DNA from: a virus
Strand: one strand, 5' to 3'
DNA: 64,000 bases
IMG/VR virus record: IMGVR_UViG_3300033485_000001
Location: 96,001-160,000 of that record
The notes beneath the pieces are model-generated. The model saw only the letters and a list, made by a program, of their open reading frames with translations, ran no database searches and was not told where the DNA came from. This document shows, in pieces, positions 2,749 to 43,361 of the stretch; the stretch's first letter is position 1; every line of letters starts with the position of its first letter. Made by a program: the position numbers and the translations under genes.

Positions 2749-3275
2749 AGGACCCTCTCAACGGCGGCTTCTACCTCCTCTTCGATCGAGAGGAGTTCGT
2801 CGTCGTCCAGCTCGTAGATCTTGACTTCGACCCTTGGGTCGTCAGAGTCGGCGCGCTTGAACTTGATCACAGGGTGGATGTGGCTGTCGTCCACCCCGAT
2901 TGCTGCCATGATCGAATCCGTAAGTAGCTTGCTTCGGTTCGAGGTGTCTACCTTCTTGTACCGAGATTCAGCCTTACCTGTCGCCCACCCCTTGTTCACG
3001 ATGTCCTCGAAGAACACCTTGGCGAAGAACAGGTAGGGCACGTCCTTCTTGAACTCGACCTGGTTGAGGAGGGCGAGCTCGGCGATGGCGAAGGCTGCCG
3101 AACGCTGGTACGCCTTCGCCTCGTCCGTCATCTTGCGGACGTGCTGCTTGAACCCGCCCTTGCCCTTGATCGTCACGTTGAAGTAGATGTTGTTGTCCGT
3201 CGGTGGAAGGGTGAGGACGACCTCCAGGTACGCCTTCCCGTTTCGAGAACCAAGCCGGTCCATCGGGACGGTCAT
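2739..3275 (-). CDS. rusA: RusA-like Holliday junction resolvase
   Basis: LPPTDNN, DTSNRSKLLTDSI, DDSHI motifs matching the RusA D-x-x-N-x-x-K-x-x-x-D pattern. Confidence 0.7.
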   Translation of the reverse strand: MTVPMDRLGSRNGKAYLEVVLTLPPTDNNIYFNVTIKGKGGFKQHVRKMTDEAKAYQRSAAFAIAELALLNQVEFKKDVPYLFFAKVFFEDIVNKGWATGKAESRYKKVDTSNRSKLLTDSIMAAIGVDDSHIHPVIKFKRADSDDPRVEVKIYELDDDELLSIEEEVEAAVERVLWG

Positions 3276-38739: not shown

Positions 38740-39589
38740 CGTCCTCCTCGCTGTCCTCGTCCTTGTCGGAGAGCCAGAACCGCTCGAGCAGCGTTCGGGC
38801 GCGATCGTCCGACACCAGAGCGATCGCCTTCTCGGGGTGCTCCCCGTCCCGCAGGTCGATGCCGTCCTGCCAGCCGGGCTTGCCCTCGAAGCCGGACAGC
38901 TTGATGGTGTCGTTGGCTGCCCTCTTCAGGAGCGCGATGGGAAGACCAGTTGGCCCTCTCCGGACCGGGGCCATCTTGTAGTTCCCAGGAAGCTCCTCGA
39001 TGAGCGTGCGCTGCTCCTTGGTCGTGTCGCACCCGTCCGCCACTCCCTTGAGCGGGGTGTGGCTCTTCTTGCCGCTCGGGTCGCCGGCGAAGAAGCACGG
39101 CTCCCACTCGGACCACTCTCGCCCGTTGGGCGGCAGCAGACCGAACATGGCCAGGTCGCGCCTCGTGTTGAGGATCATACCGTAGCCGACGGTCTCCACC
39201 ACGATCTCCTTCTGCGAGCGAGTCCTGATCTTCACCTTCGGCCCCTTGAGGAGGCCGTTGTAGACCATGAGGAGGTCGAGCCGCAGCTTGACCTTGACGC
39301 CCTCGACGATCTTCATCCAGGACACACCTTGGGTCTTGATCATCTCCTTGAACATGTTGTCCGCCATGGCCACGTGCGTCATGCGGGTCATGGCCAGCTT
39401 GGATCCCAGGGCACCACCCTCGGTCCTGGCCCGCTTGAGGATCTCGTGGAGACGCTTCCCGCCGTACATCCGCAGCATGCGATGCGCCTCCTTGTCGGAG
39501 AAGCCCATGTCGACCGCTTTCGCGATCAGCTTCTCCTCCTTCTTGTCCTCCTTCTTGGGGGCGACCGATCCCTCTTCCACCGATGCCAT
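38708..39589 (-). CDS. Hypothetical protein
   Basis: 293 aa, GGAGGT RBS, TATAAG upstream. Confidence 0.7.
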   Translation of the reverse strand: MASVEEGSVAPKKEDKKEEKLIAKAVDMGFSDKEAHRMLRMYGGKRLHEILKRARTEGGALGSKLAMTRMTHVAMADNMFKEMIKTQGVSWMKIVEGVKVKLRLDLLMVYNGLLKGPKVKIRTRSQKEIVVETVGYGMILNTRRDLAMFGLLPPNGREWSEWEPCFFAGDPSGKKSHTPLKGVADGCDTTKEQRTLIEELPGNYKMAPVRRGPTGLPIALLKRAANDTIKLSGFEGKPGWQDGIDLRDGEHPEKAIALVSDDRARTLLERFWLSDKDEDSEEDDDEGGDIWDD

Positions 39590-39636
39590 CTTGCACCTCC
39601 TCCCTAACTAGGGAAACAGATCACTGCCACATGAAC

Positions 39637-39663
39637 CTTATAGCGGTTGGCTTGATCGATTTG
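39637..39663 (-). promoter_or_regulatory. CAA-N18-TATAAG promoter
   Basis: CTTATA at 39637-39642, ~48 nt upstream of ATG 39589. Confidence 0.55.
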
Positions 39664-39684
39664 TGGTGGTACTTTCAGAGGCAG

Positions 39685-41505
39685 ATGCAAGCCGAACCTG
39701 TCAGTGACTACAGGGACTTCTACGTTGACGCCAAGCGAGCCGTAGATGCGGGAGTCTTCGATCAGAGCGTCGAGGATGGCATCGATGACTGGATGGCAAG
39801 GCTCAACGAGGAGGACGAGGAGATCGAGGCGATCCTTGCTGAAGAGGATGTGACGGACGGGACGTTCAAGCGCCCGCAGATGGAGATCCTCCCCTCCGAG
39901 TTCACCGAGTTCGCGATCAGAATTCCGGTGGCTGGAGACCTCGAGCCCTTCAGCTTCGCGACCAGGCGCTACCTCAAGCCGGTCTACGACACGCCGGCGA
40001 GGAGGACGCTGCTCAAGTGCGCCCGGCAGACCGAGAAGAGCACATCGCTGGGCAACAAGAGCTTGGCGTACTGCGGGATCAACTACGGCTTCAAGGTCCT
40101 CTACGTCAGCGCCACGGCGACTCAGGCCCAGGTCTTCAGCGTCGACCGCATCAAGGAGCCGCTCGACATCTCCCCCGAGATGCGGTTCCTCATCGACACC
40201 CGGCTCAACCAGAACGTCCTCTTCAAGCAGTTCAAGAACCGCTCGCAGATCAGAATCAGGTACGCCTTCCTGAACGCCGACCGGACGCGCGGCATCCCGG
40301 CGGACATGATCCTGATCGATGAGTTCCAGGACATCCTCTTCGCCAACGTCCCAGTCATCGAGCAGTGCGCCTCCCACTCCTACTGGAAGCTCTACTGCTA
40401 CTCGGGCACGCCCAAGAGCTTGGACAACTCGATCGAGGTCTACTGGTCGAACTACTCCACCCAGAACGAGTGGATGGTCCCATGCGAGAGGCACGGTCAC
40501 CCCGGCAAGCCGCACTCCTGGTTCTGGAACAACCTCGGCATCAAGAACATCGGGAAGAAGGGATTGATCTGCGCCAAGTGTGGACAGTCCATCGATCCAA
40601 CGCATCCCAGCGCGAGCTGGGCCTCACGACAACCAGTCACCGAGGACAACGCCCACCGTGTCACCTTCGAGGGCTACCGCATCTCCCAGCTGATGGTCCC
40701 GTGGATCAGCTGGCAAGACGACGTCATCATGGCGCTCGAGCGGTACGGCACCGCCAAGTTCTACAACGAGGTGCTCGGCCTCTCCTACGACTCCGGTGTT
40801 CGCCCGCTCACCAGGACCCAGGTTCAGTCCTGTTGCCAGAACAGGATCAGGTTCGGTGATGTGATCGAGAACGCGCAGAAGTGCCACGGAGGTGTCTTCG
40901 TCGGCATCGACTGGGGCACTGGAGAGCAGGCGTCCTACACCGTCGTCGCCCTCGGCGGGTACATGGGCAACGAGTTCCAGATCTTCTACGTTCACAGGTT
41001 CACGGGTGAGGACCTCGAGCCGCAGCGGCAGCTTCAGATGATCGCGAAACTCCTGGTCGCCGTGAACTTCAAGATCATCGGAGCAGACTACGGCGGCGGC
41101 TTCGACAGGAACGACTTCCTCCAGAGGAACTTCGGAACCCTGCGCCTGGCCAAGTACCAGTACGCTGGATCTCCCAAGGCGAAGGTGAAGTGGCAGCCCA
41201 AGCTCGGCCGCTTCATCCTCCACCGCACCGAGATCATGAGCGACATCTTCAACGCGCTCAAGTACAAGAAGATCTACCTCCCCAACTGGGAGGAGTTCGC
41301 AACCCCGCACGGGGACGACATGCTCAACATCTTCAGCGAGTACAACGATCAGCTCAACATGATCCAGTACAAGCTGAGTCCTGGGAAGAGCGACGACACC
41401 TTCCACGCCGTCCTCTATTGCTTCCTGGTCTCCATGCTCATGAAGCCCAGGCCCGACATCATCATCCCGCTTCACGCCGGACACGTGGACTTCAACCGGC
41501 GCTGA
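39685..41505 (+). CDS. terL: Terminase large subunit (lambda gpA-like)
   Basis: LKCARQTEKST (Walker A variant), LIDEFQD, YSGTP, Cys cluster, VGIDWG nuclease Asp, DDTFHA; start tentatively ATG 39685. Confidence 0.88.
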   Translation: MQAEPVSDYRDFYVDAKRAVDAGVFDQSVEDGIDDWMARLNEEDEEIEAILAEEDVTDGTFKRPQMEILPSEFTEFAIRIPVAGDLEPFSFATRRYLKPVYDTPARRTLLKCARQTEKSTSLGNKSLAYCGINYGFKVLYVSATATQAQVFSVDRIKEPLDISPEMRFLIDTRLNQNVLFKQFKNRSQIRIRYAFLNADRTRGIPADMILIDEFQDILFANVPVIEQCASHSYWKLYCYSGTPKSLDNSIEVYWSNYSTQNEWMVPCERHGHPGKPHSWFWNNLGIKNIGKKGLICAKCGQSIDPTHPSASWASRQPVTEDNAHRVTFEGYRISQLMVPWISWQDDVIMALERYGTAKFYNEVLGLSYDSGVRPLTRTQVQSCCQNRIRFGDVIENAQKCHGGVFVGIDWGTGEQASYTVVALGGYMGNEFQIFYVHRFTGEDLEPQRQLQMIAKLLVAVNFKIIGADYGGGFDRNDFLQRNFGTLRLAKYQYAGSPKAKVKWQPKLGRFILHRTEIMSDIFNALKYKKIYLPNWEEFATPHGDDMLNIFSEYNDQLNMIQYKLSPGKSDDTFHAVLYCFLVSMLMKPRPDIIIPLHAGHVDFNRR

Positions 41506-41534
41506 GAAAAACGACATGGCCTGAAGATTTTCTG

Positions 41535-41563
41535 TTGACAGGTCAGGTAGGCGGACCTATAAC
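41535..41563 (+). promoter_or_regulatory. Consensus sigma70 promoter TTGACA-N17-TATAAC
   Basis: TTGACA 41535-41540, TATAAC 41558-41563. Confidence 0.85.
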
Positions 41564-41569
41564 AGACAC

Positions 41570-41962
41570 TGCCTCGCGAGATCGAGGAGGCTCCGAAAGG
41601 ATCCGAATCGCTCTCCGAACCGGGGAGGCCCCCGGAACTGCTGGAGGAGGATCATCCCCAACGATCCCAGCAGTCGGCCCTGGAGCGGAAGGGAAACCTT
41701 CCAGGGATGGTCGGCTCCAGGGAAGCTCGAGATGGGGCAGCGTGCGGGTAACACCGTTTCGTGCGTCCCATCGAAGAGTGCGGTGACGGATCGGATGTCC
41801 GGGCTGGACTCGAAAGAGGAAGGCGGCTCTGATCAGGGGAGGCGGCGTCGAGCTCGAACCCGTAGGCGCCAGGCCGGTGGGTAACACCATCGGTGGGGAA
41901 ACCCGGATCGAGACGCGATGCGACGAAGGCCCGGTGGCGAAAGCTGTCGGGCCTTTCGTCTA
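41570..41962 (+). ncRNA. Candidate large structured non-coding RNA (~400 nt)
   Basis: Multiple nested stems and GNRA tetraloops, own promoter, terminal hairpin 41922-41960, no convincing ORF. Confidence 0.65.
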
Positions 41963-42043
41963 TCTGGACCATGACCATGTAAGAAGATCACCCAAGGGGT
42001 GACCATCCCGACCGGCGGCGGGGTTGGTAGGTGCCGGTTGCGG

Positions 42044-42538
42044 CTAGCGGCGGGCGCTCTCGCGGTCGCCCTTGCGGTCGCCCTTGCGGGGCTTCTCGTC
42101 GTCCTCGTCCTCGTCGTCCTTCTTGGACTTGGACTTCTTCTTGCGCTCGGGGGTTCCGGCGATCTCCTCGCGGATCGCCTGGACCAGCTCTCGCGCGTCG
42201 AGCTGTCCGGCGTCCTTGATGGCGTCGCCGACTTCCTCGAGCGCCTCGCCGAACTCCTCGACGAGCTCCTCGGCGCCGTTCGCGATCGCGCACTCGAGGT
42301 CGTGCGCGTCCTCGGCGGCGTCGGCGGCCCCGAGGATCGTCCCGGTGATGCCGCCGACGACGAGCGCGGTGGTCTGGTCGACGGCGAAGAGCTGGCTCGC
42401 GACGAACCCGCCGCCGACCCCCACGCCGCCTCCCTTGATCCCTCCCCGAATGACCTTCTCGGAGTGTCGCTTGACGCTGCCCCACCGGGTCGGCTTCTCG
42501 ATCTGGATCCCGAGTCTCTTCTTCTTCCCCTTGGACAT
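42044..42538 (-). CDS. Highly expressed small protein: basic N-terminus, Gly-rich hydrophobic segments, acidic middle, charged tail
   Basis: ATG 42538 with AAGGAGGT RBS and TATAAG at 42593-42588; near-exclusive C/G-ending codons. Confidence 0.75.
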   Translation of the reverse strand: MSKGKKKRLGIQIEKPTRWGSVKRHSEKVIRGGIKGGGVGVGGGFVASQLFAVDQTTALVVGGITGTILGAADAAEDAHDLECAIANGAEELVEEFGEALEEVGDAIKDAGQLDARELVQAIREEIAGTPERKKKSKSKKDDEDEDDEKPRKGDRKGDRESARR

Positions 42539-42587
42539 GTGCACCTCCTTGCTTGCAAGCAAATGTAGGGGTTTCCAGTACATTGAT

Positions 42588-42614
42588 CTTATATACTGGG
42601 AGGTGCTGGGATTT
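42588..42614 (-). promoter_or_regulatory. AA-N18-TATAAG promoter
   Basis: CTTATA at 42588-42593. Confidence 0.55.
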
Positions 42615-42620
42615 TCACTT

Positions 42621-43361
42621 TTAGCTGATCTGAAGGTGTCCGGGACGGCCTGTGACCTTCAACTGCTTGGCGAGATGATCGAAAAGCTCGATGTCGGACG
42701 CAGCGAGCTTGGCGAGGAGCTTGCGGGAGGGTCCTAGTTGAGCAGCCTTCTCCACGAAGAGCACGGCGATGGTGGCGAGGTTCTTCCTGCCGAAGTGGAG
42801 GAGGTCTCGAAGGCGTTGGAGATCGAGGTTGGTCTGGAGATCCTTGTGCTGCCCAACGAAGCGGGTCATGTCCAGGCAGAGCCGGTAGAAGGTCTGCCAA
42901 CTGTGATCCACGTTCATCATCTCGTTGAGCCTGTCGATCTCCACCTCAGTGATCTTCATGAAGACCTCGGCGTACTTCAGCATCTCGTCCACCGGCCACG
43001 CCTCTCGGCCCATCGACAGCATGGCGTTCTCGTGGAGGTTCTGGAGAGCTGCATCCTCCAGGTGTAGGAACCTGGAGGCAGACTGGCTGTTCACCTCCAG
43101 CAGCAGGTTGATCGCGTTCTCCAACCGCTGAACCTTCTGCTCCACGAAGAGGAGCCGCCTGATCAGCTCTCCCGGCTTCATCTCCCCGGCGATGTTCAGC
43201 CGGTGGATGTCGGCCAGGTCTTCCTGGCGGACGAAGATGTTGTCGCCCTCCGCCTTCCAGCGCATGAGGCCCTGGTCGAGGAGATCGTGGACTCGCTTCG
43301 AGCTGAACCCCAAGATCTTTGCTGCCTCGGACACCAGTAGGTACTTGACATCGCTTCCCAT
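42621..43361 (-). CDS. HTH_17/MerR-like DNA-binding protein with coiled coil (regulator or terminase small subunit)
   Basis: YLLVSEAAKILGFSSKRVHDLLDQG. Confidence 0.7.
   Translation of the reverse strand: MGSDVKYLLVSEAAKILGFSSKRVHDLLDQGLMRWKAEGDNIFVRQEDLADIHRLNIAGEMKPGELIRRLLFVEQKVQRLENAINLLLEVNSQSASRFLHLEDAALQNLHENAMLSMGREAWPVDEMLKYAEVFMKITEVEIDRLNEMMNVDHSWQTFYRLCLDMTRFVGQHKDLQTNLDLQRLRDLLHFGRKNLATIAVLFVEKAAQLGPSRKLLAKLAASDIELFDHLAKQLKVTGRPGHLQIS

Follow-up and report, generated by a model that had tools for sequence, protein, structure and literature searches.

The DNA analysed here (the window, 64,000 nucleotides) comprises bases 96001-160000 of an uncultivated phage genome, IMG/VR record IMGVR_UViG_3300033485_000001, which is 178,539 bp long, has a GC content of 62% and is rated complete by CheckV. 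In the window, the plus-strand gene at 39583..41505 encodes a protein of 640 amino acids (aa) with a GpA_ATPase domain (PF05876, E 2e-7) and a GC content at third codon positions (GC3) of 0.88. We identified it as the gene of the terminase large subunit (terL), its best matches among cultured phages being the annotated terL genes of Bacillus and Geobacillus phages (~26% identity by tblastn). The interval of 538 nt between terL and a convergent gene for a 179-aa protein holds a non-coding cassette of ~460 bases (41506-41966), the subject of this report, in which a sigma70-type promoter precedes a candidate structured RNA; the predicted RNA end is 84 nt from the stop of the 179-aa gene. An earlier reading made without database searches (the sequence-only reading) had placed such an RNA right after the terminase, and both this location and the stems, hairpins, repeat and promoter that it listed were found to be there. 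We show here that the cassette is a non-coding insertion absent from relatives, and that its promoter hexamers and helices are conserved in one diverged homologue. The features are collected in Table 1.

The cassette lies in a variable slot at the 3' end of terL

Relatives of the phage were gathered through the similarity of their terL genes, and what follows terL differs among them. In L002, L030-35 and the contig carrying P0002, whose terL genes are 85-86% identical to that of the window, the slot contains two to four small minus-strand open reading frames (ORFs); in L003 (terL 65% identical) it contains one 91-aa ORF, and in L038 (74%) a gene with a P63C domain. L037 and L039 (78%) have an empty site, with the terL stop inside the motif CATGACCACGTAAG. 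The terL-stop motif, as CCATGACCATGTAAG, follows the cassette in the window and also follows different inserts in L002 and L040. Because of these empty sites, and because the terL-stop motif flanks the cassette as well as other inserts, the region from 41506 to ~41966 has, judging by the alignments, been inserted at the 3' end of terL, and the slot is one that takes up accessory cargo. Since closer and farther relatives alike have an empty site or unrelated ORFs in its place, the RNA is, by the same comparison, dispensable accessory cargo. Its base composition is not distinct from that of the genome (~0.64 vs 0.62 GC).

The cassette is not an assembly artefact, because the independent JGI contig L029 shows no difference from the window between 40612 and 44775, cassette included. 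It is present in the IMG/VR record, in L029 and in Logan contigs from two runs.

A diverged phage carries a copy of the candidate RNA

A single diverged copy was found, in a Logan-assembled phage (L036, run SRR28346263) whose intein-containing terL is ~86% identical to that of the window. L036 extends 435 nt beyond terL, and this stretch is a copy of the cassette in which no gene was called. The final 12 nt of the RNA of this phage are on L040/L041, which overlap L036 by 27 nt; homologues of the 246-aa gene next to the 179-aa gene completed this 3' end, and gave no third lineage with the slot on a contig. What follows the RNA cassette in the L036 phage is a distinct minus-strand ORF of 66 aa, with a promoter of the TATAAG type described below; this shows that the cassette is an independent module.

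Neutral sites are near saturation between the two phages, since four-fold degenerate sites are only 51% identical in terL and 55% in the 246-aa gene. Yet the two RNAs can be aligned from end to end, with 65% identity over 359 aligned columns (plus 59 gap columns) and some blocks as high as 31/33 identical bases, and identity is 76% in paired columns compared to 52% in unpaired ones. An identity above that of saturated neutral sites, greatest where bases pair, suggests that the RNA is under selection.

The structure itself is also conserved. The RNAalifold consensus had an energy of -122.2 kcal/mol, compared to -74.5 ± 6.4 kcal/mol in column shuffles (z = -7.4), with a structure conservation index (SCI) of 0.63 vs 0.47 ± 0.04 in the shuffled alignments. 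Among its 92-95 pairs, both partners have changed in 15 and one partner in 14, with pairing preserved in every case, and the double changes fall to 0-2 when the partners are slid by 1-3 columns. The most telling item is the P8 arm, in which AUCGGA/UCUGAU has become GCGAAG/CUUCGC in L036 between fixed anchors, with six successive double changes within an unbroken series of seven changed stacked pairs; these six were reached in 0/300 column-shuffled alignments. Sub-hairpins are gained or lost whole while the stems that bear them persist. Folded singly, the plus strand of 41565-41965 reached -200.6 kcal/mol (z = -4.45 vs dinucleotide shuffles), and the L036 RNA alone, with the same order of arms, had a z of -4.88.

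The sequence-only reading had taken the GNRA loops on the plus strand as a sign of the polarity of the RNA, and the further data agree with it. The promoter points the same way, the GAAA loops are on the plus strand, and the alignment contains 18 G-U cells that the opposite strand would show as A-C mismatches. The reverse-strand consensus was weaker (z = -5.1, SCI 0.56), and the minus strand of 41565-41965 had a z of -2.19 vs dinucleotide shuffles.

Architecture of the predicted fold

The RNA would fold into a 275-nt multi-helix domain closed by P1 and bearing P2-P8, a second long hairpin (Domain 2) and a terminal stem (Table 1). P1 appears in both independent minimum free energy folds and in the consensus. 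In the P2a arm of L036 the GGGUCC/GGAUCC helix is kept, and a 20-nt insertion has its own GCC-GAAA-GGC tip. The CUGCUGG/CCAGCAG strands of P4 (41638/41667) are kept in L036. In P5, CCCTGGAGC and GCTCCAGGG enclose GGAAGG-GAAA-CCTTCC (41678-41722, given as DNA); this tip (GGAAGG-GAAA-CCUUCC in the RNA, 41687-41702) belongs to the window phage only, a hairpin of 17 nt being cleanly missing in L036 while the outer stem is kept. P6 is likewise kept (GCUCC/GGAGU in L036), and the place of P7 holds a different hairpin there, AGCAGC/GCUGCU with the tip UAGUC-GAUA-GACUG. Domain 2 is one long hairpin in both RNAs, with one C-G to U-A change in its base helix and indels of 11 and 6 nt in its interior. 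The terminal stem keeps 13-16 pairs, with four G-C/G-U changes. Other stems that we could confirm are GATGGG/CCCATC and GGG-GAAA-CCC (as DNA).

A tertiary contact between the loops of P4 and P5 is tentatively proposed, since bases 41650-41658 of the P4 loop can pair with 41704-41712 in the P5 loop. By hand alignment, the L036 counterpart is GACCAC/GUGGUC, with one U-A to C-G change. The predicted duplexes (-16.0 and -10.9 kcal/mol) are marginally better than those of shuffled loops, 9% and 3% of which reach these energies.

The sequence-only reading had pointed out that GGGTAACACC occurs twice (41746 and 41879). Both copies are there, but they do not form a conserved motif: in L036 the first copy is not conserved and the second only loosely. 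An internal duplication of the RNA was considered and dropped, its score of 41 being not significant against 33 ± 6 in shuffles.

Table 1. Predicted elements of the RNA cassette, its flanks and the corresponding slot in relatives (window positions unless a contig is named)
Feature	Position	Strand	Description
Left cassette end	41506..41534	+	GAAAAACGACATGG block kept in homologue, then T-rich tract adjoining -35
Sigma70-type promoter	41535..41563	+	TTGACA 41535-40, 17-nt spacer, TATAAC 41558-63
P1, 5' strand	41570..41576	+	UGCCUC; pairs with 41839-41844; predicted RNA 5' end
P2/P2a arm	41578..41615	+	GAGA/UCUC closing GGCUCC-GAAA-GGAUCC; tcc-GAAA-gga at 41592-41601
P3 hairpin	41620..41635	+	CCGGGG-AGGC-CCCCGG; six invariant pairs; loop AGCC in L036
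P4 hairpin	41637..41674	+	ACUGCUGG / CCAGCAGU; 22-nt loop; eight pairs, closing A-U to G-C
P5 hairpin	41678..41722	+	CCCUGGAG / CUCCAGGG; eight pairs, closing C-G to A-U; CCUGGAG/CUCCAGG
P6 closing P7	41725..41779	+	P6 GCUC/GAGU; P7 GAUGGGGC/GUCCCAUC, tip GCGG-GUAACA-CCGU
P8 arm	41787..41836	+	Thirteen pairs; tip CUC-GAAA-GAG
P1, 3' strand	41838..41844	+	GAGGCG; closes 275-nt 5' domain; GAGGCA in L036
Domain 2, long irregular hairpin	41845..41921	+	Base GCGUCG/CGAUGC; tip GCCGGUGG-GUAACA-CCAUCGGU
Terminal hairpin	41922..41966 (stem 41922-41960)	+	16-17 bp, GC-rich, GAAA loop; likely 3' end/terminator
Right flank, outside cassette	41967..42043	-	Relic of ancestral terL end CCATGACCATGTAAG (41969-83)
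179-aa gene	42044..42583	-	GC3 0.92; phage TATAAG promoter at 42593
TATAAG sites, examples	42593, 39642, 24475, 18293, 1359	-	
Slot in relatives	L002:2572-3480; L003:5834-6197; L038:3231-4175; L040:5300-5670		

Promoter and transcript ends

The sequence-only reading had called the promoter perfect. The TTGACA-17-TATAAC arrangement is there, but its match to the consensus is 11/12, the last -10 base being C. Even so, at 11/12 it is the top sigma70-like site of the whole 178.5-kb genome on either strand, and 10/12 is reached by two other sites only; a scan for consensus promoters did not call it, since a C ends the -10. TTGACA and the 17-nt spacer, which fit the sigma70-type pattern (17 ± 1 bp), are found in L036 too, and the -10 is TATAAC in both phages, not the consensus TATAAT with its invariant A at position 2 and T at position 6. 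Primary sigma factors need T at the final -10 position. The hexamers are 12/12 identical in L036, compared to 10/17 for the spacer and only 1/6 for the six bases before the predicted +1; identity resumes at UGCCUCGCGAGA, 7 nt after the -10, which corresponds to the predicted +1 and the 5' strand of P1. Immediately 5' of TTGACA both phages have a T-rich tract (ATTTTCTG / CTTTTCTTTG), possibly a UP-like element. At the left end of the cassette, columns A8-G20 are invariant in the window/L036 alignment, and this block is missing from the empty-site relatives.

The rest of the genome uses a different signal. TATAAG sites number 26, compared to 2 for TATAAC, and their flanks are conserved (GG/GTA before, ATC/GG after), several of them lying ~17 nt downstream of AAAAGTGAAA. 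No TATAAG site was found on the plus strand between genome positions 39,653 and 165,401, where the TATAAC of the RNA is the sole exception of its kind. The TATAAG class probably represents the phage's own promoters. Because the cassette promoter does not have TATAAG-type flanks and is the only one with a consensus -35, the host holoenzyme is favoured as the enzyme that reads it; a phage sigma factor stays a candidate, because the conserved base that ends the -10 is a C. Judging from the promoter, the host RNA polymerase plausibly transcribes the RNA.

The 3' end is assigned to the terminal hairpin, where termination is plausible. The tail that follows this hairpin is U-poor, UAUCU in the window and UUUCU in the homologue.

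Cargo modules are bordered repeatedly by the motif GATCAGCTAA(G/A), which is also found a short way upstream of the TATAAG promoter that serves the 179-aa gene (L002:2572-2585 and 3011-3025; L040, reverse complement, ~5660-5648; window ~42620-42632, minus strand). The motif may mark junctions or be associated with promoters, and so assist the swapping of modules.

The cassette shows no sign of coding

Genes of the phage have a GC3 of 0.84-0.92 and a GC content at second codon positions (GC2) of 0.30-0.42, and no frame in 41506-41980 resembles them. The region had been described as ORF-poor; on the minus strand, two ORFs (108 and 115 aa) do begin with ATG, and what held of that description is that both lack a coding signature. 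Their GC3 is 0.56-0.73, and GC3 is flat across the six frames of the window and L036 versions alike. Their Pro/Arg/Ser-rich translations had no match in Pfam or PHROG, and the 115-aa ORF, compared with 1.84 billion proteins, gave one weak match to six short stretches of a 459-aa protein, which we took as noise. Most of the indels between the window and L036 (20, 1, 17, 1, 3, 11 and 6 nt) have lengths not divisible by three, protein similarity between the two is weak and equal in all six frames, and gene callers called nothing at the cassette in L029 or L036. A conserved protein-coding frame, which would have spoken against the RNA, was found in neither version by any of these measures (GC3, indels, six-frame similarity).

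Comparison with known RNAs

Rfam 15 gave no match at the gathering score anywhere in the window. At E<=10, the region 41400-42100 had only two chance-level matches, to a mouse long non-coding RNA region and a eukaryotic frameshift element, and the L036 homologue had none at E<=1. The families covered include RNase P, tmRNA, 6S, SRP, group I/II introns, GOLLD and ROOL, as well as HEARO, pRNA, CRISPR direct repeats (CRISPR-DR) and self-cleaving ribozymes. The covariance models thus bear out the earlier failure to match the RNA by eye to RNase P, tmRNA, SRP or an intron; with the helices and hexamers kept in the diverged homologue and no Rfam match, the proposal of a structured, non-coding plus-strand RNA with its own promoter stands as a candidate. 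ARAGORN found no tRNA or tmRNA in the 64-kb window. An intron was rejected, the insert being at or after the stop codon, its slot being reused by other cargo and no intron model matching. A resemblance to RNase P (the strings GUCCGGGC, GGUAAC and GGGGAAACCC, compared with the E. coli sequence) was dropped for want of a model match.

GOLLD and ROOL, and by extension OLE and raiA, the large 'ornate' non-coding RNAs of bacteria and phages, are among the nearest known RNAs. They likewise have several hundred nucleotides, many helices and several GNRA tetraloops, are phage- or prophage-borne, non-coding and were without a biochemical role when first described; the candidate loop-loop contact is a further likeness. 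The RNA described here differs in having no match to their Rfam models at E<=10, in being known from two phage lineages instead of hundreds of representatives, and in not being near tRNA genes, none of which occur in the window. GOLLD and ROOL are larger than ~390 nt. The pRNA of phi29 (~120-174 nt), which all phi29-like phages have and cannot do without, is a transcript of the host polymerase functionally linked to the packaging motor. It too is a phage-encoded structured RNA, but the link to packaging is here one of location only: the element is missing from close relatives with a 78-86% identical terL, does not match the Rfam pRNA model and belongs to an unrelated virus of 178 kb.

As a genetic unit the cassette resembles the morons of phages (accessory units with their own transcription, set between conserved genes), being a discrete insert between genes that are adjacent in relatives, with a predicted promoter and terminal hairpin of its own, in a slot whose cargo changes from relative to relative. 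It differs in its cargo, a structured RNA without a coding frame instead of a protein gene, and in a GC content close to that of the genome around it.

The nearest precedent for a structured RNA of ~400 nt at a terminase locus is the CBASS-activating bacteriophage RNA (cabRNA) of staphylococcal phages, which comes from the terminase region (PMC10686824). The cabRNA has its origin inside the coding sequence of terS-terL, from which it is transcribed, and binds the CdnE cyclase as an immune trigger, and no sequence homology was reported between the cabRNAs of different phages (PMC10686824). It differs from the RNA of the cassette in origin, conservation and its role as a trigger of defence: the element described here lies wholly downstream of the terL stop, outside the terS and terL coding sequences, and is an optional insert with its own promoter and conserved helices. 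A survey of structured RNAs in IMG/VR reported motifs of 29-151 nt and required at least three matching regions (PMC10690425); the cassette RNA was beyond its reach because of this size range and the three-region requirement.

Further copies, a second RNA locus and the neighbouring genes

The element appears to be rare, with two phage lineages carrying it among the sequences searched. Among 50,697 phage records, blastn with this region returned nothing; blastn and nhmmer against 19 terL-linked IMG/VR loci, and an nhmmer profile of the two sequences against 45 retrieved loci plus the whole genome, returned only the element itself and L036. BLAST against the full records of five related phages, one of them 95% complete, gave chance matches of 14-31 nt. 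No additional copy turned up when IMG/VR, JGI metagenomes and GTDB genomes were scanned with exact and degenerate patterns; a single match at the start of a Hymenobacter gene was judged by blastn to be due to chance. Among terL C-terminal fragments on short contigs, none was closer than 65%.

A second candidate structured RNA, of ~370 nt, was seen at L021:690-1075 on the minus strand (genome 168,489-168,874), ~8.5 kb past the end of the window. It lies behind a phage TATAAG promoter, ends in a 19-bp hairpin and has a predicted energy of -172.6 kcal/mol (z = -5.88). It had no Rfam match, and no BLAST match in the 95%-complete relative G002.

The other cargo of the slot consists of one to four orphan ORFs of 36-134 aa, or of the P63C-domain protein; the orphan ORFs had no match in Pfam or PHROG, and in L002 they are of lower GC. 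An intein that contains a LAGLIDADG homing endonuclease (PF14890 and PF14528) is encoded in many terL genes of the clade, whose proteins have ~1030 aa (L036:4001-7090, also P0017, P0020, P0022, P0023, P0028 and others), and in L005, L006 and L008 the terL match is interrupted by 1.1-1.2 kb. Beyond the cassette, a hairpin at 41983-42007 (inverted repeat I13) follows the stop of the 179-aa gene, whose product had no match in Pfam or PHROG. This protein has a hydrophobic Gly-rich centre and a tail rich in Lys/Asp/Glu, and evolves fast (33% identity to its L040 homologue). The product of the neighbouring 246-aa gene (42621-43361, minus strand) is 83% identical to its L040 homologue and has a weak HTH_17 or excisionase-like N-terminus.

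Discussion

Taken from comparative sequence analysis, the reading that we favour is that the cassette contains a real, selected gene for a structured RNA, a candidate for a new family; we put its probability at roughly two in three. Several observations weigh against it. Thermodynamics alone cannot carry the claim, because the overlapping 400-nt grid windows rank only 82nd-350th of 1782 genome-wide in composition-regressed folding energy, and the number of hairpins with a GNRA cap and a stem of 4 bp or more, three, does not exceed that of several other 450-nt windows. In L036 alone, both strands fold about equally well relative to shuffles. The 15 double changes are only ~1.8 standard deviations above those that alifold finds on shuffled alignments (10.3 ± 2.6), the structure tested was derived from the same two sequences, and with two diverged lineages only, the covariation is without statistical power in the R-scape sense. 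At the ends of the transcript, TATAAC is one base from the phage TATAAG core, so that either polymerase may read it, and a terminator scan (at least 5 T in 8 bases) does not call the terminal hairpin, which has no U-tract.

Part of these data is what a neutral remnant would give, that is, acquired intergenic DNA (a decayed gene or a host fragment) with GC-rich folding and a fortuitous promoter: GC-rich DNA of this phage folds strongly everywhere, as the grid ranks illustrate, GNRA hairpins are as dense elsewhere in the genome, and the element is rare, with no further copy in the IMG/VR, JGI metagenome and GTDB scans. We nevertheless consider such a remnant improbable, as the element can be aligned throughout while four-fold sites are saturated, both hexamers are intact, paired columns are better conserved than unpaired ones, and the consensus z and the six compensatory changes of P8 speak for a maintained fold. 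Less likely still is that the cassette codes for a small protein, or for several, in foreign codon usage and on the minus strand, as in the slot of relatives. The slot does carry small minus-strand ORFs in relatives, the 108- and 115-aa ORFs have ATG starts, and one minus-strand frame of L036 is stop-free over 126 codons; against this, no frame of either version has a coding signature, the reading frame is broken by most indels, similarity is equally weak in all six frames, the gene callers are silent, and the Pro/Arg/Ser-rich translations have no family match and no relative in 1.84 billion proteins. Hardly credible, finally, is an essential packaging element at the level of DNA (a pac or cos site) or a phi29-like packaging RNA; a packaging-related RNA was among the roles that the sequence-only reading had entertained. 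The cassette adjoins terL directly and has many inverted repeats, but phages with 78-86% identical terL lack it, some with an empty site, there is no match to the Rfam pRNA family, and the promoter, the GAAA loops and the G-U pairs are strand-asymmetric, pointing to RNA rather than DNA. As far as the relatives tell, the cassette is a dispensable insertion in a variable slot, which speaks strongly against its being a pac site or essential for packaging.

What a selected RNA gene would do is a separate matter. We propose that the cassette is a self-contained 'RNA moron', housed in the hypervariable slot where terL ends. From a host-type promoter, transcription would start at ~41570 and yield a non-coding RNA of ~390 nt whose 3' end is the GAAA-capped hairpin 41922-41960; the enzyme would be the RNA polymerase of the host, and the TATAAG-promoter system of the phage would play no part. 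This RNA could act in trans, as a protein-binding decoy or scaffold in host takeover or defence evasion. We offer this role, by analogy, as a tentative one, well short of an even chance, and favour it because the RNA is dispensable, because the slot holds accessory cargo, and because its size and fold exceed what a function in cis would need. Cargo in such variable slots usually serves host takeover or defence evasion. More speculative, and on the whole unlikely, is a new class of large phage RNA with tertiary structure (P1-closed, with GAAA loops and the candidate L4-L5 kiss) that has ribozyme activity or serves as a decoy aimed specifically at a host enzyme or defence; it would come from the only host-type promoter of a phage that otherwise relies on its own RNA polymerase and TATAAG promoters, and would be expressed when phage transcription is unavailable.

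The main alternative to the role in trans is one in cis, by transcriptional interference or antisense read-through (past a leaky terminal hairpin) on the convergent 179-aa and 246-aa genes, towards which the promoter would fire, or by stabilisation of the 3' end of the terL message. The convergent layout, with so short a distance from the RNA end to the stop of the 179-aa gene, and a terminal hairpin without a U-tract are what it would need, and in both phages the conserved GGGAGGC (41837-43) can pair either with the 5' end, as P1, or with GCCUUUC (41951-57) in the 3' strand of the terminal hairpin, a possible switch. However, alternative pairings of 5-7 bp are common by chance in GC-rich sequence, both genes are regulated in relatives that have no cassette, the L036 phage has a different spacing, as the 66-aa ORF with its own promoter intervenes there, and ~390 nt of conserved multi-arm structure far exceeds the need of interference or stabilisation. 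We give the role in cis little chance.

Structured RNAs of more than 300 nt are rare, and are usually ribozymes or the cores of ribonucleoprotein machines; to our knowledge, the phage-borne GOLLD and ROOL are still without an assigned function. As long as neither a host nor additional copies are known, the very narrow distribution of the cassette limits its general importance. It is, on the other hand, tractable, being discrete and optional, with clear ends and natural empty-site controls, and its promoter, of a type unique in the genome, hints at a separation of host and phage transcription. If the product is an accessory RNA that interacts with the host, the concept of moron and anti-defence cargo would extend from proteins to large folded RNAs.

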